Virus record (IMG/VR): IMGVR_UViG_3300025669_000020
Location: 32,001 to 96,000 of that record
Strand: one strand, 5' to 3'
Source of the DNA: a virus
DNA length: 64,000 nucleotides
Below the pieces are notes generated by a model that saw only the letters and a list, made by a program, of their open reading frames with translations, did no database searches and was not told the DNA's origin. Each line of letters starts with the position of its first letter. Within the stretch, counting starts at the first letter, position 1. Positions 10,211 to 56,241 of the stretch are shown here, piece after piece. The translations under genes and the position numbers were made by a program.

Positions 10211-11338
10211 ATGCAGATCACCGTTGACAGAGAGATCCTGCAGAGTGCCATCGATAGCGTCAATGCCGCCGTCGAGGATTCTGCGGAAGACATCCACTCC
10301 CATTTCCTGTTCAGGGTTCGGGAGGGTAAGGGTGACATCCTTGCCAGTAACGGAACCCGTGTCTTTGCGGGTGTTCTCGTAAATGACGGTTTCGAGTGCG
10401 ACACCGACAGTGGGATGTTCAGCGTCAAGGCATGGCGTATCCGCCAGCTTCTGAAGTCCATGAAGAGCGAGAAGGTCACCTTCAAGGTGGATGGGTTCAA
10501 CATCACGGTGCCTGACAGCAGGGGCGAGGTCACCTACTCTTCCCTGGATCCCTCCAGCTTCCCCTTCTGGGATCAGCAGTTCGAGGATGCCAAGCTGGTC
10601 GCCAAGATCACCGCGTCTCGGCTCCATGCTGCTTTCGGGTACACCAAGAACTTCATCTCTGACCGTGAGAACCAGACCCCTGCTCTGGCTGCCATGGAGG
10701 CCCGTGAGGGTGCTCTGTGGGCTACGGATCAGGTTGCTGTGTCCATGGTCTCTGTCAAGGGCATGGAGGAATCGGGCCTGTCCATCCATCGGAACGATGT
10801 GGGCAAGGTCATGAATTTCCTCCAGGCCAATGCCTCCGATGAGGTAGAGGTGCGTGAGCATGACCGCTGCACCCTTTTCGTGCGGGCTGATGGTGGTGTC
10901 CTGGGTGTGACTCGGTGGCAGTATGCGTTCCCAGCTCTGAAGCTCCAGAAGGACGGCCCCGTGAAGTGCTCCTTCACCGTGGATGCCGAAGAATTGAAGC
11001 GCCAGATCAACTTCCTGACATCTGCTGCCAAGAAGAACGATCCCCGCATCACTTTCAAGTACAAGCAGGGCGAGGACGCCCTCATCCTGGAAGTGGCCTC
11101 AGCCTTTGCGGGCAAGGTTGGTCGTACCACCCTGGACATCACTGCCCAGGACGGGATGGGAGAATTCCCAGAGGCGGGCTTCATCCTGAACCATGGCTAC
11201 ATCTCCAAGATCATGACCCACTTCGGGGAAGAGTCCCTGAACATGGGCATCAACTGGACAAACAAGAATGGTTGGGTGGTCTTCCGCCACAAGCAGGAAG
11301 AGGATGACTACCTCACGGTCGTGGTGTGGCTGAAGTAG
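10211..11338 (+). CDS. dnaN: DNA polymerase III beta-like sliding clamp
   Basis: ~375 aa, MQITVDREIL..AI, LDPSSFP, WATD, LNHGYI..I three-domain pattern; near dnaX. Confidence 0.75.
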   Translation: MQITVDREILQSAIDSVNAAVEDSAEDIHSHFLFRVREGKGDILASNGTRVFAGVLVNDGFECDTDSGMFSVKAWRIRQLLKSMKSEKVTFKVDGFNITVPDSRGEVTYSSLDPSSFPFWDQQFEDAKLVAKITASRLHAAFGYTKNFISDRENQTPALAAMEAREGALWATDQVAVSMVSVKGMEESGLSIHRNDVGKVMNFLQANASDEVEVREHDRCTLFVRADGGVLGVTRWQYAFPALKLQKDGPVKCSFTVDAEELKRQINFLTSAAKKNDPRITFKYKQGEDALILEVASAFAGKVGRTTLDITAQDGMGEFPEAGFILNHGYISKIMTHFGEESLNMGINWTNKNGWVVFRHKQEEDDYLTVVVWLK

Positions 11339-11964
11339 CCGCCAGAATCCCGGCTCTCCGGTCACGGCTGGATCGCGTTCTCGGTGTTCGGGATGGGGTA
11401 GCAACCCGTCTGCAGAGCACCGAGACTGAGATCGCACGTCTGGAAAAGGAAGAGCAGCTGCTGGACATGGTATCCAACCTGTTCCGCACCCTCATTGACA
11501 CTGAAGTCACCGAGGGGGTCAAGGCTGTAGAGCAGCTCCTGACGGAAGGGCTTCAAGCTGTTTTCGATGACCAAGACCTCAGTGTGCGTTCCGAGGTCAG
11601 CATCAAGAAGGGCAAGGTCAGTGTGGATTTCATCACTGTGCAGCGGCATCCTGATGGGTCTGTCACAGAAGGGCTCAGCAGGGAGGCTTTCGGCGGTGCT
11701 GTGACCACGGTGCAATCCGTGCTCCTTCGGATCCTGGTGGTTCTCCGCCGTGGTATGCGTCCTTTGCTGCTACTGGATGAGAGCCTTCCCGCTTTCGACC
11801 CCAACTATGTTCACAACATGGGTAGATTCATACAGCTTCTCTGCAAGCGGCTTCAGGTAGATCTTCTCTTGGTCACCCATAATCCCGCTCTAGTGGAAGC
11901 CTCCAACGTCGGGTATGAGATACAGAAGCGGGGCGGTGCTGCTCAGTTTCGCAAGACCCGATAG
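11326..11964 (+). CDS. SbcC/Rad50-like ATPase, C-terminal half
   Basis: Short coiled coil, degenerate signature FGGA, Walker B LLLDE, D-loop AFD, H-loop VTH. Confidence 0.85.
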   Translation: MAEVAARIPALRSRLDRVLGVRDGVATRLQSTETEIARLEKEEQLLDMVSNLFRTLIDTEVTEGVKAVEQLLTEGLQAVFDDQDLSVRSEVSIKKGKVSVDFITVQRHPDGSVTEGLSREAFGGAVTTVQSVLLRILVVLRRGMRPLLLLDESLPAFDPNYVHNMGRFIQLLCKRLQVDLLLVTHNPALVEASNVGYEIQKRGGAAQFRKTR

Positions 11965-11973
11965 AGGTGCTGT

Positions 11974-12534
11974 ATGAAGAACTCTGGTGAGATCAGGCAG
12001 AAGGTCAAGCAAGTCCGCTACCGCTATCTGAAGAAGGCGTTGGATCGGAAGCTCCGCACATCCCCCGATACATGCCGCTTCAATGGGCAGCATGAGGACT
12101 GCGGGTATCAGTGTTGCCAGCACCGGATGGCAGATGAGGGGTGGAATGGCATCGTCTGTGATGAGAAGTTGGATGGTAGGGAGCGCTCTTTGCTGTGCCT
12201 CCACTTTGAGTTGAAGCACAGCAAAGAAGCCATCAAGGAGGCTTTGGACAGTTTCCTCAAGACAGCTCCTATTCAGGAGATCGCTTTCCATTTCCCCGAC
12301 CTTGCGGCCCTTCTCTGGGTGCTGGATGGGGAGAGTGGTTTGCGGAATACTGAGGTAGAGCTGGACTTCCAGGACTCCGAGCCCAATCCCAAGCCCGACA
12401 TGGAACCTGAAAACGAGCAAACCCCCGCACTTCTCCCCGTAGATGACACCTCTATCCTGCATGTGCAGGATGTGGTGGAGCCCGTGTCAGGGTGGAAGGG
12501 GTGGTTCCGCCAAATCTTTGGAGGTGGCTCATGA
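11974..12534 (+). CDS. hypothetical Cys-rich protein
   Basis: C..C..CC..C..C cluster and acidic tail. Confidence 0.65.
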   Translation: MKNSGEIRQKVKQVRYRYLKKALDRKLRTSPDTCRFNGQHEDCGYQCCQHRMADEGWNGIVCDEKLDGRERSLLCLHFELKHSKEAIKEALDSFLKTAPIQEIAFHFPDLAALLWVLDGESGLRNTEVELDFQDSEPNPKPDMEPENEQTPALLPVDDTSILHVQDVVEPVSGWKGWFRQIFGGGS

Positions 12535-13094
12535 AGGGTCCATCCGGTCTGCTGTCTGTGGCCAATTTCGACCAAGAGAACTTGAAAGAGCACACGCTTC
12601 TCCTGATGGAATTCCAGGTGAACCCGGAGACAGCTCCCTACCTTGTGTCCTCATCCGCATCCGTGATGTGGCTTCGCAGGGCTCATGGGGGTCGTGTGCG
12701 TGCCGCTGTCCGTGAGGTGTCTGTCTCTGATTACTACCGGGAGGTAGTGACAGAGGTGTACACCATGGGCACAGAGGCAGAGTGGGGCAACACTGCACCG
12801 CTGACCTTGGAAGGGGTGGAGACCTGTGTACAGCACTTGCACTCCTATGACCTGGCGAAGGTCACTGTGCTCTCCCACGAGGATGTCCCGTGGGAGTCCT
12901 GGGGAGTGCCTGTGGATGAGCCCTGGAACGGGGCCGAGATCGTGCTGACCTCTTGGATGCCACCTGGGATGGTGGTAGTCGTGCCAGAGGATCGCGGTTT
13001 TGTGGGGACCATCTGGAAGGTTGGGACACACAAGATCCTCTCTGTCATCCACAACGCCAGTCGTGGCATGGCCGTGGCTTGGGATGGGAAATGA
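12531..13094 (+). CDS. truncated paralog of the major capsid protein
   Basis: Colinear similarity to 52087..52962 (see findings). Confidence 0.55.
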   Translation: MKGPSGLLSVANFDQENLKEHTLLLMEFQVNPETAPYLVSSSASVMWLRRAHGGRVRAAVREVSVSDYYREVVTEVYTMGTEAEWGNTAPLTLEGVETCVQHLHSYDLAKVTVLSHEDVPWESWGVPVDEPWNGAEIVLTSWMPPGMVVVVPEDRGFVGTIWKVGTHKILSVIHNASRGMAVAWDGK

Positions 13095-13819
13095 AAAAGT
13101 GGCTCCAGGAGAGAACCCGAGAGGCATTGGAACTCTCGGATGCCCTGGAGGGTCATCTCATGGGTCGGGGGATCAAGTACAAGACCATCAAGGACTTGTT
13201 CTTGGGAGAGTGGGGCAGGGACAGGGATGACGCTGAGACGGCACCTGACCCCGTGTTCCGTGAGCGGTACGGGCGGAAGGGTAAACCTCTTGCGGGCTCT
13301 CTGGTGTGCCCTCTGTTCAGCCCCAGGGGTTACCTGATAGGGGCGGAATTCCGTGCATGGCAGGGGCCAAAGGCTCTTTCCCGCTACCTCCTTCCTGAAG
13401 CGGCTTGGAACCCTATCCTGGTGGGGTTCCCGAAGGCGATGTCCAAGATATGGGATGGTGGGGATGTGTGGGTTGGAGAGGGCATCTTCGACATGTGTGC
13501 CTTGGAGCATGTCGTACCCCCACAGGATGCCCTGGTGGCTACGGTCAGAGCCAAGCTGACCAACAAGCACGTCGAGTTTCTGCGTCGGCATGTACGGGGG
13601 ACGGTGTATATGGTCTATGATCGGGACGAAACAGGCAGGAGGGCGACAAAGGGGTGGGTAGATGACACGGGGAAGCGTCGTTGGGGGGCTCTGGATGTGC
13701 TGAACCGGGTAGGGGTCTCATGTAGGGATGTCCCCTACATCGGTGGAAAGGATCCCGGTGAAATCTGGGAGCGCTCTGGCACAGAGGGTCTCAGAGATGC
13801 TTTCGGCGGGATTTTCTAA
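13091..13819 (+). CDS. DnaG-type primase catalytic (TOPRIM) domain
   Basis: GEGIFD, YDRDETG, KDPGE; no N-terminal zinc-binding domain. Confidence 0.8.
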   Translation: MKKWLQERTREALELSDALEGHLMGRGIKYKTIKDLFLGEWGRDRDDAETAPDPVFRERYGRKGKPLAGSLVCPLFSPRGYLIGAEFRAWQGPKALSRYLLPEAAWNPILVGFPKAMSKIWDGGDVWVGEGIFDMCALEHVVPPQDALVATVRAKLTNKHVEFLRRHVRGTVYMVYDRDETGRRATKGWVDDTGKRRWGALDVLNRVGVSCRDVPYIGGKDPGEIWERSGTEGLRDAFGGIF

Positions 13820-13834
13820 TTACGGGAGTCTGTT

Positions 13835-14338
13835 ATGGAAATGTGGAAGGCCAGCAAGGAAGTCGTGGATCGTGTTCAGGAGATGATCCGGGAATACCAC
13901 CCTGACCTGGTGATCGTCATGGACGAGATCGCCATCGTGTTCAAGGAGAAGGCTGCCAAGCGTGGTGGCAAGGTCATCCTGGGCAAGGCCAGCAAGGCGA
14001 ACCCTTTGTTCTCCAGTGGTGTCCTCTCGGAGCAGCCCTGGAAGTTCATCATCGAGCTGCCCGCCGATGAGTGGGAGACCCTGGGCAACCGGAAGCAGTC
14101 GGCCCTCCTGGACCGTCATCTGTGCGCGTGCCGCACCGAAGAGAACGCCGAAACGGGCGAGCTGAAGTGCAGCATCGCGCCTCCCGACGTGGCCTACTAC
14201 TGGGATGAGCTGGATCGCTGGGGCGACTGGCACCCCCGTGAGGAAGGCGACGAGGACAAGCCCAACATCATCAACGTGCTCTCGGGAGCCACCGATGGTG
14301 CAGCTGCCGTGGTCGTTGCTGAAGAGGCAGAGGAGTAG
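13835..14338 (+). CDS. putative phage metallopeptidase-family protein, catalytic motif degenerate
   Basis: GKVILGKA, FIIEL..W..L...ALLD family pattern, but DRHLCAC in place of DHELxH. Confidence 0.6.
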   Translation: MEMWKASKEVVDRVQEMIREYHPDLVIVMDEIAIVFKEKAAKRGGKVILGKASKANPLFSSGVLSEQPWKFIIELPADEWETLGNRKQSALLDRHLCACRTEENAETGELKCSIAPPDVAYYWDELDRWGDWHPREEGDEDKPNIINVLSGATDGAAAVVVAEEAEE

Positions 14339-14829: not shown

Positions 14830-16305
14830 ATGGCATTGGATACTAAATATCGCCCCCTGACGTTCTCCGAGGTTGTGGGGCAAGAGTCCCACGTCCGAGT
14901 GCTGAGGCAGATTGTCCTCCAGGGGACAGGGTTTCATCAGAGCTATGTGTTCTGTGGTGGACATGGGTCAGGCAAGACCACGTTGGGTCGTATCCTAGCC
15001 CGTGCCCTTCTGTGTGAGAGCCCCGTAGAGGGCAACCCCTGTGACGAGTGTGCCTCTTGCCTGGAGATCCTGGAGACGGGTTCCAGTGAGTGCTTCACCG
15101 AGTTCGATGCCGCAACGAACTCCGGTAAGGACGACATCAAGCAGTTGGTGGAGGCCGTCCAGTACGACACCCTCTCGGGCAAACAGCGGCTGTACCTCAT
15201 TGATGAGTCTCACCGGCTCTCCAAGCAGGCATTGGATGCCCTCCTCAAGCCCATGGAGGACACGGTTGCAAAGAGTGGGAACAAGAGGCTGGTCTGCATC
15301 TTCTGCACCACCGAGCCTGAGAGGATGGTCGGCACCATTTTCTCCCGTTGTGCCCCTGCCTTCGTGATCCGTAATGTTGACCCGCAGAGCATTGCGAAGC
15401 GGTTGGAGTACATCTGTGAGCATGAGGGGATCACCTATGATCCTGCTTCTTTGGTGCTCATCGCGGAGATCACGGAGTCCCATATCCGCGATGCCATCAA
15501 GACCATGGCGGGTGTGGCAACGCTGGGGTCGGTGAATGTCGAAAACACCAAGGTGTACCTGAGACTGGATACCCATGGGACATATCTCCAGATCCTGGCT
15601 GCCATCGGCAAAGACCTGCCCCAAGTTCTTAGGTTGGCAGACACCTTGAGTGAGGCAGTGTCTCCCTCCACCTGTTACAAAAAGCTGGCCGAGTTTTCTA
15701 TGCTGGCCTACAAGGTTTCATTGGGTGCGGTGGCACCCCCGACGTACATCAAGGCTGAGCATCTGAAGAAGATTGGGCAGTACCATGGTGAGAAGCTCCT
15801 GTGGTTCTGCAAGGTGTTCTCTTCCAAGATGGGGCACCCTACTCCGTATGTGCTGGCCTGTGATCTGGCCATGCTCCACCACCAGCGGTGCGGCTCTTGG
15901 GCATCGGCTACAGCGGTGCAATTGCCAACGGCGGGAAGTCGTGCCAAAGTGACTACAAGCACGATCCCCTCTACTACTGAAGAGAATTCTGGGACGGAAC
16001 CCGATCCGGTCGAAGAATCCACTGCAGTTTTGGAAAATTCCGGTAAGGTAGAGGAACCAGTTTTCCCTAACCCTACTGGGAGTTCTGCCCGCACCACCAA
16101 GGGTGGTGTTTTTCTGGAGCAGAAAGCCGTTAAGAGGAAGAATGCCCCTGAAACAACCCCGGAAGGTTCTTTGCCTCCTTTGGGCGTTCCCGTTTTTCGG
16201 GATCTCCTGCAACGTCGTGTGAACGAGCTTCGTAAGAATGCCCAGCAATACAGATCAGCGGGACGAACAGACATGGGTGGTCCTGGAACTGACCCGAACG
16301 GGTGA
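14830..16305 (+). CDS. dnaX: DNA polymerase III gamma/tau-like clamp loader
   Basis: KYRPLTFSEVVGQ, GSGKTT, CDECASC, DAATNSG, IDESHRLS, SRC. Confidence 0.93.
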   Translation: MALDTKYRPLTFSEVVGQESHVRVLRQIVLQGTGFHQSYVFCGGHGSGKTTLGRILARALLCESPVEGNPCDECASCLEILETGSSECFTEFDAATNSGKDDIKQLVEAVQYDTLSGKQRLYLIDESHRLSKQALDALLKPMEDTVAKSGNKRLVCIFCTTEPERMVGTIFSRCAPAFVIRNVDPQSIAKRLEYICEHEGITYDPASLVLIAEITESHIRDAIKTMAGVATLGSVNVENTKVYLRLDTHGTYLQILAAIGKDLPQVLRLADTLSEAVSPSTCYKKLAEFSMLAYKVSLGAVAPPTYIKAEHLKKIGQYHGEKLLWFCKVFSSKMGHPTPYVLACDLAMLHHQRCGSWASATAVQLPTAGSRAKVTTSTIPSTTEENSGTEPDPVEESTAVLENSGKVEEPVFPNPTGSSARTTKGGVFLEQKAVKRKNAPETTPEGSLPPLGVPVFRDLLQRRVNELRKNAQQYRSAGRTDMGGPGTDPNG

Positions 16306-17401: not shown

Positions 17402-17432
17402 CGGTTATCCTTCTATGTCCTCGCAGGGGTAG
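17402..17432 (+). promoter_or_regulatory. class B (late) promoter-like motif CGGTT-N6-CTAT-N11-GGTAG
   Basis: Recurrent intergenic motif upstream of late genes. Confidence 0.6.
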
Positions 17433-52086: not shown

Positions 52087-52962
52087 ATGAGCAACGTATC
52101 CAACGCTGCAAAGCAGCAGATCATCTCCGAGTTCATCAAGACCCCCCAGGGTCGCGCTAAGCTCGCAGCCTCGATGACCCAGCCTCTGCGCCTCCGCCGG
52201 GACTACACCGCAGTCGGTCGTAAGACCTTCCTCGTGGAACAGCTCCCTGACGGCGCACTGCCCATCTACGACAAGGACCCCGATGTGACGGCATACGTCG
52301 TTGGTGAAGAAGGCGAGAACATCCTCGCAGTCACCAAGCCTCGCCGTGTCATCTTCCCCCTCTTCGAGATCGCATCCAACCCCGAGATCCCGCTCACGCA
52401 GATCAAGGAACGTCGGTTCGACCTCATCGAGCGCGCCCAGGACTTGGCCCGTGCCCAGATCCAGGCAGCAGAAGACGAGCGTGTCTTCGCAGTGCTCGAC
52501 AGCATCGCCACCAACGGCTTCGACTCCGTGGCTGGCGGCACCAACCCTGACATCCCCGTGGTCGCTCCGATCTCTGGTGCTGTCCTGGCTGATGCCTTCG
52601 CACTGATCGAGCGTCATGACCTTCATGTCGCTCGCGTGTTCATGAACGCTCGGGACTACGCGGACCTCCGCAAGTTCGGTCGCGACATCCTGGACATCGA
52701 ATCCCAGCGCGATTTGTTGAAGACCGGCCTGATGGCAACCCTCTGGGGAGCACAGATCATCGTCAGCCGCCTCGTGCCTGTCGGAACGGTCTATGTGTGT
52801 TGCGAACCGGAAATGTTCGGCCGCATCCCCGTTCGCATTGAGCTGACAGTTCTCAGCGCAGACGACCCGAAGGCTCGCACCATCGGCTTCTCCTGCTTCG
52901 AGAACCTCGGTATCGGCGCGTTCAACCCCCGTGGTCTGACCCGTCTGACGATCACCCGTTAG
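52087..52962 (+). CDS. major capsid protein (HK97 fold)
   Basis: GRAKLAASMTQPLR.RDY.VGRK, FEIASNP, IQAAED, LWGAQIIVS..VP.G, ENLGI..NPRG; C-ending codon bias; followed by terminator. Confidence 0.88.
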   Translation: MSNVSNAAKQQIISEFIKTPQGRAKLAASMTQPLRLRRDYTAVGRKTFLVEQLPDGALPIYDKDPDVTAYVVGEEGENILAVTKPRRVIFPLFEIASNPEIPLTQIKERRFDLIERAQDLARAQIQAAEDERVFAVLDSIATNGFDSVAGGTNPDIPVVAPISGAVLADAFALIERHDLHVARVFMNARDYADLRKFGRDILDIESQRDLLKTGLMATLWGAQIIVSRLVPVGTVYVCCEPEMFGRIPVRIELTVLSADDPKARTIGFSCFENLGIGAFNPRGLTRLTITR

Positions 52963-53157: not shown

Positions 53158-54309
53158 ATGGCATCTGACAAAACAAACACACCTAAAGTATATGGGGCTT
53201 TCCGCAGGGTGGTCACACCAGAGGTCTTGCGAAAGCTGTATTTGGAGCAGAATGATGCCGAGATCGCTGCCCTCTATGGTGTCTCAGATGCCCTGGTCTC
53301 CCGGTACAGAAAGCAGTGGGGGATCCAAACACTGAATCCCAGACAACGAAGGGACCAAGTACGGGAAGCACAGGGTTTGCCCACAATTGAGGATCTGACA
53401 CCTGTGGTCCTTGCAGACATCTATTCCAGAATGGGGGATGCCCAGATCGGGAAGATGTATGGGGTGAGCAAGCCTGTGATCGTGAGGTTGCGGCAGAGGT
53501 GGGGTATCCACACCTTGACCAAAACACAGAGGGCTACACAGGAGGGGCCTTTGTCAGAGGGGCAGCAGGAGACATTGATAGGTGTTCTGCTCGGGGATGG
53601 ACATGTCACAGCACGGGGCTCTTTTCAGGTGGGGCACTCCCATTCCCAGGTGGGGTACGTCCACCATCTGTATGACCTGTGGGCTCCTTTGAGCAGGCCT
53701 GTTCAGTTTGGGGAGAAGATCATGGACAGCGGCACTGTGGCGTACACGTTCCTTCTGCGGACAGCACCACACAAATGGCTCCAGTACCTTCGCAAGCTGT
53801 TTTATCCACAGGGAGTCAAGGTCTTCCCAGAGAGCATCCTGACACACCTGAGTGCCCGGTCCTTGGCCTACTGGTACTTTGATGATGGCCACTTGGATTC
53901 AGGGTTGCCTTCAATTGCACTGGGGGACATCACGGTAGCCGCTGCCGATGATGTGGCACGGCGGGTAGGGAAGCGGTTTGGGTTGGATGCCTACATCCGC
54001 CCACAGTCCACAGAGACCTGTAAAATCCTCGGGGTGCGAGCTGGGAGTACGGATCTGTTCTTTTCCCTTGTCCGCTCTTACCTGATCCCCGAGATGGCCC
54101 ACAAGTACCCTGCCAAACAGCGTCCCGTGGGCACTGTTCCTGTACGCCCCCGCTTGACATTGGAACCTGTGAAGATGCCCCTAGACCTGACAACACGCTC
54201 CAAAGAATGGGGGCATCTGGGAGAAGAGGGGCAGGAGCATCTGTTGGATGATCTGGTGGCTTTCTGGCACCAGCAAGGGTTTCCGTACCGTTTAACAAAA
54301 CTTAGGTGA
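53158..54309 (+). CDS. tandem HTH + LAGLIDADG endonuclease, probably 3'-truncated by IS607
   Basis: Two D..I..YGVS..V..R..WGI repeats; LIGVLLGDG and LAYWYFDDG; ends just after GFPY at the IS boundary. Confidence 0.8.
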   Translation: MASDKTNTPKVYGAFRRVVTPEVLRKLYLEQNDAEIAALYGVSDALVSRYRKQWGIQTLNPRQRRDQVREAQGLPTIEDLTPVVLADIYSRMGDAQIGKMYGVSKPVIVRLRQRWGIHTLTKTQRATQEGPLSEGQQETLIGVLLGDGHVTARGSFQVGHSHSQVGYVHHLYDLWAPLSRPVQFGEKIMDSGTVAYTFLLRTAPHKWLQYLRKLFYPQGVKVFPESILTHLSARSLAYWYFDDGHLDSGLPSIALGDITVAAADDVARRVGKRFGLDAYIRPQSTETCKILGVRAGSTDLFFSLVRSYLIPEMAHKYPAKQRPVGTVPVRPRLTLEPVKMPLDLTTRSKEWGHLGEEGQEHLLDDLVAFWHQQGFPYRLTKLR

Positions 54310-55603
54310 TCCTATGCTCTGTTACCGTCTCTTGCGAGATCGGCCCCCGGTCTGACTCTCCCCGAAGGGAAATGCCGGGTTCCTGCTTCACCGAGGTCTG
54401 CCTCCGTATCGCAAGCGATACGGAAGGTCTCACGTCCTCTCCACAGGCGTTTTTAGTGAGGTCCGACGAACTGGCGGCCCTCAAGATGTTGATCGCAGCA
54501 TTGAGGTCAGCATTGGCCTCGTGCCCGCAAGACAAGCAGCAGAACTCGCTCTGCGAAGTCCGATTGTCCTTCTCGACGTGCCCACACGCTGAACACCGCT
54601 GGCTGGTGTAGTGGGGTGGAACAGCCACGACTTCACAGCCGTAGAGTTTCCCTTTGTACTCCAACAACCTACGGAACTCCCCGAAGGCGGCATCCAGCAC
54701 GACCCGGTTGAGGCCACGTTTTCGCGAGCCTCCCCCAGCCGTCATGTTCCGCACCTTCAAGTCCTCGATCACAACCTTGCCGTGGCTTTTGGCAAGCATA
54801 GTCGTGGCCTTGTGGAGTACATCACGTCGAACATTCCGAACCCGAGCATGGGCACGGGCGAGCTTCGCCCTAGCCTTGCCCCGGTTCTTCGACCCCCTCT
54901 TCTTTCTGCTCACCTCCTGTTGAAGCCTCTTGATCTTCTTTTGCCCTTTCTGGAGGGCTCTCGGATTCTCGATGACCGTCCCGTCCGACAAGGCAGCCAA
55001 CCGAGCCACGCCGAGATCCAGTCCCACAGGGGGGTTCCCGTTCGGCACTGCCGCTCCCACAACTTCGGGCCCGACGACGGAAACGAACCATCGTCCTGCC
55101 TTCTCGGTCACAGAGACCTGAGCATGCTTCCCCCATGGGAGGTAGCCACGCTCTCCCGGCTGGAACTTCACCTTCCCGATGACTGGGAGCTGGACGGTCC
55201 TGTGATCAACCTTGATGGTGCCGGTCAGGCGGAACCCGCCGACGCCCCTGCTCCTCGACTTGAACCTTGGGTACTTGGCTCGTCCTGACAGGAAGTTCTT
55301 GAAGGCCCGGTCGAGATCACGAAGGGCTTCCTGCGGTGCCGCTTTGCTAGCCTCGTACATCCAAGGGATGCCGCCCTCTTCGGGGCTGGCTTTCTTCAAG
55401 ACGTTGAGGTCGCGGTGGAGAGAGATGGCGTTCAGCCATCCTTTCCACTTCTTCGGCTTGCCCTCAGTCACCCATTGCTCGTAGGCGTCCCGATGCTGAC
55501 GGAGCCCCCAGTTATACGCCCACCGAGCGTTGCCCGCATGTTGGAGAAGGGCCTGCCTCTGGCGAGGAGTCGGCCTGATCTCCGCTCGGTAGGCGAGCCT
55601 CAC
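54302..55603 (-). CDS. tnpB: TnpB RNA-guided nuclease (433 aa)
   Basis: RWAYNWGL, YPRFKSR, RuvC GLDLG / VIEDL / NADLNAA, CSAC..CLSC zinc finger. Confidence 0.93.
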   Translation of the reverse strand: MRLAYRAEIRPTPRQRQALLQHAGNARWAYNWGLRQHRDAYEQWVTEGKPKKWKGWLNAISLHRDLNVLKKASPEEGGIPWMYEASKAAPQEALRDLDRAFKNFLSGRAKYPRFKSRSRGVGGFRLTGTIKVDHRTVQLPVIGKVKFQPGERGYLPWGKHAQVSVTEKAGRWFVSVVGPEVVGAAVPNGNPPVGLDLGVARLAALSDGTVIENPRALQKGQKKIKRLQQEVSRKKRGSKNRGKARAKLARAHARVRNVRRDVLHKATTMLAKSHGKVVIEDLKVRNMTAGGGSRKRGLNRVVLDAAFGEFRRLLEYKGKLYGCEVVAVPPHYTSQRCSACGHVEKDNRTSQSEFCCLSCGHEANADLNAAINILRAASSSDLTKNACGEDVRPSVSLAIRRQTSVKQEPGISLRGESDRGPISQETVTEHRIT

Positions 55604-56241
55604 TGGTCGGCCTCGACTTCTGCCTTCGCTCGTTTCCGGTTTTCGGCTGAGCGTCGCCCGTAGATACGAGCGGAGAACGATGCCATCAGCGAGAGGATGT
55701 CTTCGACAAGCTCCTCCTGATAGGACTTCCCGAGAGTCTCCTGTACCCACTCGATCTCGACGCCGTGGCTGTCGAAGTAGGCCGCGAGGAGGCCACCTCC
55801 GAACCGGGAAAGCCGATCTTTGTGTTCGACCACCACCCGGTCGATCTTGTGTTCGTTGACGAGCTTGAACAGCTTGCGGAGTCGAGGGCGGTTCTCCGAC
55901 ATGCCCGAGCCCACGTCTTCCAGGACGGCGACCAGCTTGTAGCCTTGTTTGACACAGTGGGTCGTGACCCGCCCGACCTGACGTTCTAAATCGCCTTTCT
56001 TCTTTTGGTCGTGGCTGCTCACCCGACAGTAGATGGCGGCACGAACCTCGGTGGCTCCTTCCCCTGACACGTCTTGCCCTTGTAGAGCCTCGATGACCGA
56101 GAGCTTGTAGCGACGGTGGTTCCCAAGAGTTCGTTCGGCCACTAGGCGGCCTTCCTCGTCCCAACGACGTAAGGTGTCGGGATGGACACCGAGCATCTCT
56201 GCTGCGGCACGGACACGGAGGAGTCGGTCAGCCTTCGGCAT
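55600..56241 (-). CDS. tnpA: IS607 serine-recombinase transposase
   Basis: MerR-type HTH LGVHPDTLRRW..GNHRRY; YCRVSS, DVGSG, DRLSRFG. Confidence 0.93.
   Translation of the reverse strand: MPKADRLLRVRAAAEMLGVHPDTLRRWDEEGRLVAERTLGNHRRYKLSVIEALQGQDVSGEGATEVRAAIYCRVSSHDQKKKGDLERQVGRVTTHCVKQGYKLVAVLEDVGSGMSENRPRLRKLFKLVNEHKIDRVVVEHKDRLSRFGGGLLAAYFDSHGVEIEWVQETLGKSYQEELVEDILSLMASFSARIYGRRSAENRKRAKAEVEADQ

Follow-up and report, generated by a model that had tools for sequence, protein, structure and literature searches.

The DNA analyzed here, hereafter the window, is a stretch of 64,000 nucleotides from a 105.6-kb IMG/VR contig that is estimated to be 23% complete; the genome should therefore measure about 450 kb. 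The + strand of the window carries a run of genes for replication and recombination. A sliding clamp, the DNA polymerase processivity factor, is encoded at 10211–11338 (phrog_947, E 1e-19) in a conserved position, and is followed by an ATPase at 11326–11964 that is a candidate C-terminal half of an SbcC/Rad50-like protein (phrog_15167, E 1e-18). Next comes an open reading frame (ORF) for 186 residues at 11974–12534, aligned with its homologs and modeled with AlphaFold2 (AF2), whose product we refer to as the partner. The gene under study lies immediately downstream, at 12531–13094 on the + strand, and encodes P0001, a miniature HK97-fold protein of 187 residues recognized from its AF2 fold and its homologs. 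It is followed, on the same strand, by the catalytic domain of a DnaG/T7-type primase (Toprim) that has no zinc-binding domain (13091–13819; PF13155, E 1e-7; phrog_47, E 4e-14), a PhageMetallopep-family protein (13835–14338; PF18894, E 6e-18), and a tau/gamma-like AAA+ subunit of the clamp loader (14830–16305; PF13177, E 3e-25; phrog_5846, E 2e-51). The gene for the major capsid protein (MCP) is found 39 kb away, at 52087–52962 (+).

The ORF at 12531–13094 is a real, conserved gene. Direct reading of the sequence reveals a GGAGG ribosome-binding site at 12520–12524 (+), 6 nucleotides before the ATG at 12531. We take this ATG, and not the GTG at 12492, as the start because the homologs begin at the same methionine; ORFs on the opposite strand of 12531–13094 are without support. 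The start codon overlaps the stop of the partner ORF (12532–12534) in the tetranucleotide ATGA, and the stop codon, TGA at 13092–13094, overlaps the ATG of the primase gene in a second ATGA (13091–13094). The translational coupling that the sequence-only reading had proposed for the gene, between the upstream ORF and the primase, is thus visible at both junctions, and it is kept in relatives. Across 33 distinct loci, the junction between the partner and the HK97-like gene overlaps in 28, with exactly ATGA in 13, and the junction between the HK97-like gene and the primase is ATGA in 11.

The neighborhood is conserved, too. The order of a coiled-coil gene, the sliding clamp, the ATPase, the partner, and the HK97-like gene is kept in 45 of 45 IMG/VR loci, and every related locus has the ATPase gene directly 5′ of the partner. 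The primase, the PhageMetallopep protein, the clamp loader, and a NusG-like protein then follow in approximately 40 of the 45. The succession of partner ORF, HK97-like gene, and primase recurs in further metagenome loci and in LR745208, an uncultured 485-kb phage. The downstream side is more flexible: four loci have 0.2–2 kb inserted before the primase, and in three IMG/VR loci (L027, L031, and L042) the primase is not adjacent, its place being taken in L027 by genes of nucleotide metabolism. The HK97-like gene is therefore bound less closely to the primase than to the genes upstream. From the survey of junctions and loci, the invariant unit consists of clamp, ATPase, partner, and HK97-like gene, and within it the partner and the HK97-like gene form the tightest pair.

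In every locus, the HK97-like gene sits outside the head-morphogenesis module, between clamp and ATPase on one side and primase and clamp loader on the other. Synteny in related phages had been suggested as a check on the sequence-only reading, and the position of the gene is kept in every related locus examined. The motif CGGT-N7-CTAT, which is enriched in the window and putatively of late type, occurs in five copies where 0.75 are expected; all are on the + strand and all lie at or beyond 17402, the first at 17402–17416. No copy is present upstream of or inside the operon that contains the HK97-like gene. The gene is presumably expressed before the late genes. Position alone is compatible with a role in the virion as well; huge phages scatter their structural genes.

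P0001 belongs to a sizeable family. A word-indexed search returned 27 relatives with 37–99% identity and lengths of 156–239 residues. An exhaustive profile search, covering 1.84 billion cluster representatives, recovered at least 289 family clusters (50% identity) at E ≤ 1e-3; 163 of them reach E ≤ 1e-30, and almost every one has a length of 155–250 residues. Its members tend to be acidic (median pI 5.6) and are marked by invariant or nearly invariant residues: P36, L38, W47, R57, A59, W85, G86, G95, W142, P152, D154/R155, G159, H174, N175, and R178. P0001 matches no Pfam or PHROG family, and our literature searches found no published description of a miniature HK97-fold family.

The known copies are nearly all on viral or metagenome contigs, and the genomic contexts are all those of huge-phage contigs. 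Among 185,579 species genomes, the family turned up once, on a 123-kb contig of a metagenome-assembled genome (MAG). By tblastn, P0001 has no match in 50,697 phage records; the family profile found a copy only in LR745208, and in these searches no cultured phage has a member. A profile search, which speaks at the level of sequence only, detected no member in phage G, Tunturi_5, or I3. Scans of viral contigs with the single proteins P0280 and P0169 gave no match, and a metagenome scan for a subfamily with N-terminal extensions returned mainstream members only. The family is found exclusively in phages that have an MCP of the phage G type.

The predicted structure gives the protein its identity. 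The AF2 model of P0001 is a compact HK97 capsid fold (pLDDT 94.9, pTM 0.91). In an exhaustive VIA-align search against 48,161 PDB representatives, the top 50 entries are all HK97-fold chains from capsids, gene transfer agents (GTAs), satellites, or encapsulins, with Z of 7.2–10.7 and 144–159 of the 187 residues aligned. Foldseek against the PDB likewise places only HK97-fold proteins at the top, led by 2e0z, a particle from Pyrococcus furiosus. Against BFVD, the best match is gp27 of phage G (E 6e-8, TM 0.59), which leads the next match by approximately 40-fold in E-value. TM-scores are moderate throughout, 0.4–0.6 in the PDB and BFVD. The ESM Atlas model, independent though poor, gives the same HK97 structural neighbors. 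On these models, the fold of P0001 is that of HK97. The sequence-only reading had envisaged a reduced HK97-fold protein inside the replication operon, apart from the head genes, and had named a structural comparison among its tests; AF2, Foldseek, and VIA-align all match the fold clearly and bear that description out.

What the model retains is the P-domain, with a 19-residue spine helix (65–83) and beta-strands, and a reduced A-domain with one helix (93–104). To judge by aligned ranges and secondary structure, it lacks the N-arm, almost the entire E-loop, and a portion of the A-domain. Where it is aligned to HK97 gp5, the match opens at residue 130 of gp5, past the N-arm. The conserved core begins at the LMEF strand (residue 25), which aligns to residue ~91 of the MCP; the strand made by the 24 residues before it is optional, and several family members start at LMEF itself. 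With at most 24 residues before LMEF, as compared to ~90 in the MCP, there is therefore no room for an N-arm and an E-loop. After the first helix of the A-domain, P0001 has a variable loop of 17 residues where the MCP has ~35. The earlier estimate that the N-terminal ~90 residues are missing is accordingly about right, and has to be extended by a further ~20 residues gone from inside the A-domain. It is through the N-arm, the E-loop, and the A-domain helix segment that the subunits of a capsid are locked to one another.

The MCP of the window (52087–52962, 291 residues; phrog_2522, E 1e-50) is of the phage G gp27 type. It is 87% identical to the protein of LR745208, 49% to that of Tunturiibacter phage Tunturi_5, 39% to phage G gp27, the solved capsid protein of phage G (PDB 6WKK), and 29% to the proteins of Bixzunavirus-type mycobacteriophages. 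The sequence-only reading regarded the HK97-like protein as a paralog of this MCP with colinear similarity to it. The colinear blocks do exist: they are located in the A-domain and at a C-terminal N-x-x-R-G turn, they are recovered by aligners, and they are colinear with the structural equivalences. They do not rise above chance. BLASTP of P0001 against the MCP returns a single block of 24 residues with E 0.032, as one comparison, and the recommended profile alignment yielded no significant match: hhalign of the family profile (56 sequences) against the MCP profile (11 sequences) gives E 0.13 and a probability of 0.5%. The MCP profile could not be deepened because every retrievable relative is 84–95% identical. 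When hmmsearch was run over the 922 ORFs of the 105.6-kb contig, neither family HMM ranked the other protein near the top; none of the 56 family members matches a capsid Pfam model at E ≤ 1, and the family profile found no capsid among PDB sequences. A second mini MCP paralog is present in a related genome (L058); it was tried as a sequence bridge between the MCP and the HK97-like family and provides none. Paralogy is plausible on structural grounds, with phage G gp27 at the head of the Foldseek matches in BFVD, and no sequence statistic supports the link. P0001 probably descends from the MCP lineage of its own phage.

The two proteins differ sharply in their pace of evolution. In all nine genomes that have both genes, the MCP is 84–91% identical to that of the window, as opposed to 25–48% for the HK97-like protein. 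In the same comparison, the primase is 36–55% and the clamp loader 39–55% identical; in its rate of change, the HK97-like protein resembles the replication genes. A subunit that co-assembles with so constrained an MCP would be expected to be under constraint as well, and the divergence of the HK97-like protein next to the MCP is therefore an argument against a role in the shell. So is the situation in phage G and Tunturi_5, which have the same type of MCP and in which no HK97-like member is detected by sequence, and so is the absence of the late-type motif near the operon.

The partner offers a second line of evidence. Its family is marked by a conserved basic N-terminal helix, a cysteine-bearing insert that 7 of 33 homologs lack entirely, the motif YPDxAALxWVL, and a disordered linker that is acidic, as in the partner itself, or proline-rich. 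In about 28 of 40 pairs, and in the partner encoded in the window, the protein ends in a tryptophan-rich amphipathic tail of the SWWQRLFG type; the tail is absent in about a third, and two loci have a transmembrane-like stretch instead. This tail could be a membrane-targeting helix or a docking peptide, and we prefer the former. Residues 1–122 are modeled with pLDDT >90, and this domain has no fold match (Z <5; Foldseek E >6) and no lead in the ESM Atlas. The homologs of the partner ORF have no zf-CHC2 or other consistent Pfam match. Without a recognizable fold or family, the partner therefore provides no functional anchor. We also considered the partner as the zinc-binding domain of the primase, in a split enzyme of DnaG/T7 type; 7 of 33 homologs have no cysteine, and there is no match to a zinc-ribbon family or fold, so this candidate was rejected. 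In three divergent cluster representatives (P0162, P0169, and P0224), the partner and the HK97-like domain are a single protein, as seen at the protein level, with the partner first and the HK97-like domain after it.

Taken together, these features lead us to propose that P0001 is a nonshell HK97-fold subunit paired with the upstream protein in a replication/recombination module, probably as an oligomerizing platform tethered by its partner. We put the probability of this reading at roughly one half. Most likely, it would have branched off long ago from the phage G-type capsid lineage and become a stripped-down protein that no longer builds a shell: the P-domain core and a reduced A-domain would have been kept, and the N-arm, the E-loop, and one helix segment of the A-domain lost. 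The protein would be made from the replication/recombination operon through translational coupling, its synthesis in step with that of the helical partner upstream and, in most lineages, with that of the Toprim primase without a zinc finger. The HK97-like protein and its partner would act as a two-part unit, presumably outside the virion. In this unit, the HK97 domain may serve as a capsomer-like platform, and the partner, with its long linker and its tryptophan-rich tail, may attach it either to the membrane or to the machinery of replication and recombination. Among the roles suggested earlier, the context speaks most for a factor in replication or recombination, with an assembly regulator a less likely candidate; a link to the chemistry of replication is suggested by the company the gene keeps. 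A more specific version, in which the HK97 capsid fold was recruited in one huge-phage clade as a ring- or platform-forming replication/recombination subunit paired with a membrane-tethering partner, is tentative, and we would bet against it at better than even odds.

The same observations have to be read against other accounts of the gene. P0001 could have a minor part in the capsid or in its assembly, for instance as a special vertex subunit, a nucleator, or a regulator of size or timing that caps the MCP or assembles along with it; its position in the replication block would then be incidental. The fold is that of a capsid protein and its best match is the phage's own type of MCP; huge capsids plausibly need extra control of assembly, a related genome has another mini MCP paralog, and T4 gp24, a vertex paralog, sets a precedent. 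However, a protein without N-arm and E-loop is deprived of the parts needed for lattice contacts, and its replication-like rate is difficult to reconcile with contact to an MCP that is 84–91% conserved. Fusion to a noncapsid partner in three lineages, the want of a late-type motif near the operon, and phage G and Tunturi_5, which share the MCP type and have no member detected by sequence, weigh in the same direction, and we consider a capsid role unlikely. Quite unlikely, in our judgment, is also an encapsulin- or scaffold-like pair, in which the partner would be a cargo or scaffold docked, by a C-terminal peptide or by fusion, inside a small HK97-fold cage or capsomer-like particle. The gene order is suggestive, with the client upstream and the HK97-fold gene downstream as in Family 1 encapsulin operons, and so is the architecture of the partner, whose disordered linker leads into a brief conserved motif at the C terminus, together with N-terminal fusions as in 2e0z. 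Family 4 A-domain encapsulins, moreover, are truncated HK97 proteins downstream of a client enzyme (PMC8346489). Yet closed shells use an N-terminal helix, an N-arm, and an E-loop that P0001 does not have, no match to PF04454 or DUF1884 is found, and the genes are phage-borne and not part of cellular operons, the one copy among 185,579 species genomes being on a MAG contig. In addition, a tail that is absent in about a third and transmembrane-like in two looks more like membrane targeting than cargo docking.

Two further accounts are improbable. One is an early-expressed decoy, as entertained in the sequence-only reading, or an inhibitor, directed against host defenses that sense capsid proteins. 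Such defenses exist, CapRel-SJ46 and Lit among them, and a capsid-like fold made from a presumably pre-late operon would suit the purpose. Of the roles proposed earlier, however, this one fits least: counter-defense genes are usually accessory and mobile, whereas the HK97-like gene is a core gene in a fixed position; the MCP that it would have to mimic is nearly invariant, and its own surface has drifted so far from it that sequence comparison does not recognize the likeness; and the coupling and fusion to a noncapsid partner would be left unexplained. We regard it as very unlikely. Finally, the resemblance to capsid proteins could be a product of convergence or of modeling, with no evolutionary link to HK97-fold proteins, an account that would accommodate both the moderate TM-scores (0.4–0.6) and the failure of sequence and profile comparisons to reach significance with any family of capsid proteins. 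Against it, the model is very confident, two different predictors arrive at the same fold, all 50 top PDB entries share one fold and align to about 80% of the protein, and the weak sequence blocks run in the same order as the structurally equivalent segments; its probability is the lowest that we assign, at most a few chances in a hundred.

The nonshell subunit that we favor can be placed beside known HK97-fold systems, beginning with the capsid proteins of the same phages. With phage G-type MCPs (PF25209/PF05065, phrog_2522), P0001 shares the fold of P-domain and A-domain and weak colinear motifs. In contrast to them, it is 187 and not 291 residues long, has a shortened A-domain and neither N-arm nor E-loop, evolves several times faster, and is coupled or fused to a noncapsid partner. 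Measured by the features of the HK97-fold MCP clan CL0373, it has the fold; a match to a sequence model, the N-arm, the E-loop, and a location in the head module are absent. T4 gp24, the vertex paralog of gp23, is a phage analogy: here, too, one phage genome has an HK97-fold gene besides that of its MCP, likely from the capsid lineage. The T4 protein is full length, clearly gp23-like in sequence, encoded beside gp23, and part of the shell. P0001, unlike gp24, has 187 residues next to an MCP of 291, lies 39 kb from the MCP gene, and has no significant sequence similarity to the MCP.

Encapsulins provide the other comparison, as HK97-fold proteins outside the virion, a status that P0001 probably shares. 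Family 4 encapsulins (DUF1884, PDB 2PK8) are truncated HK97 proteins encoded directly downstream of a client gene (PMC8346489), and an N-terminal fusion of client to HK97 domain is seen in the Family 1 shell of Pyrococcus furiosus (2E0Z) just as partner and HK97-like domain are fused in P0162, P0169, and P0224. The differences are nonetheless substantial. Family 4 proteins keep only an A-domain of ~100 residues, whereas P0001 also keeps the P-domain and the spine helix; encapsulins are cellular, whereas the present family is phage-borne; none of 56 HK97-like members matches the encapsulin Pfam families PF04454 and PF08967 (DUF1884); and the partner, viewed as a client, is no enzyme of a known cargo class. 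The parallel is real in form, and the defining features of the encapsulin families are absent.

A conserved family without sequence relatives that has kept the fold without the shell-locking elements, and that resides in a replication/recombination operon where it is coupled or fused to a noncapsid partner, would widen the functional range of the HK97 fold, which ranks among the most abundant in nature. At ~160–190 residues and confidently modeled, its members are a tractable target for asking what a capsid subunit does when it does not make a capsid. For annotation, they illustrate that the “hypothetical proteins” of huge phages can hide capsid-fold paralogs that only structure prediction reveals. 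To our knowledge, wherever the HK97 fold has been encountered so far, it builds shells: in tailed phages, herpesviruses, gene transfer agents, satellites, and encapsulins. Beside these systems, a noncapsid, replication-linked setting would be an unusual home for the fold and, if the more specific version with a ring- or platform-forming subunit is true, the first case of a capsid fold that serves the replication of a genome and not its enclosure.

The miniature capsid-like protein of the replication operon, P0001, is not the only small capsid-like protein in these genomes. A 381-kb IMG/VR contig that also holds locus L017 carries a mini capsid paralogue of approximately 134 aa (L058:1809-2210, + strand), located between an actin/ParM-like ORF (L058:695-1738) and a terminase-like ORF. 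In BLASTP, it matches residues 167-240 of the window's major capsid protein (MCP) at 34% identity (E 4e-12), and the A-domain is the sole part of the MCP that it covers. It has no sequence relationship to the P0001 family, and no counterpart was found in the window's contig.

The MCP itself (window 52087-52962; loci L059-L138) is extraordinarily conserved in its clade: over 560 IMG/VR stretches and over 2,000 clusters encode it at 84-95% identity. Replication proteins from the same genomes reach only 25-60%. Contigs bearing this near-invariant MCP extend to 619 kb. Close to the capsid gene, a large TnpB-like ORF of 620 aa (54302-56164, − strand) directly follows a LAGLIDADG-like gene; it looks like an insertion element within the structural region.

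Among the HK97-like proteins of the P0001 family, P0236, P0257, and P0280 form a small subfamily with a different N-terminal extension of 60-110 aa, in which they share the motif F-[RC]-K-x-[VL]-M-x-x-[LV]-Y-x-x-x-F-P. The upstream partner ORF family (window 11974-12534; alignment A4) ends in an acidic disordered linker followed by a Trp-rich amphipathic tail of the SWWQRLFG type; this tail gives way to a hydrophobic, transmembrane-like stretch in loci L043 and L044. The Cys-bearing insert is entirely missing from 7 of 33 homologues.

CGGT-N7-CTAT is an enriched motif in the window, which holds 5 copies where 0.75 would be expected. All copies are on the + strand and downstream of the replication block, at 17402, 23824, 30872, 42487, and 62513.

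In one sub-lineage, the primase block after the HK97-like gene is replaced by other genes (L027:6668-10253), encoding adenylosuccinate-synthetase-like (PurA-like), dUTPase/dCTP-deaminase-like, and IMPDH/GMP-reductase-like proteins. The PurA-like gene might encode a PurZ-type enzyme for base modification.
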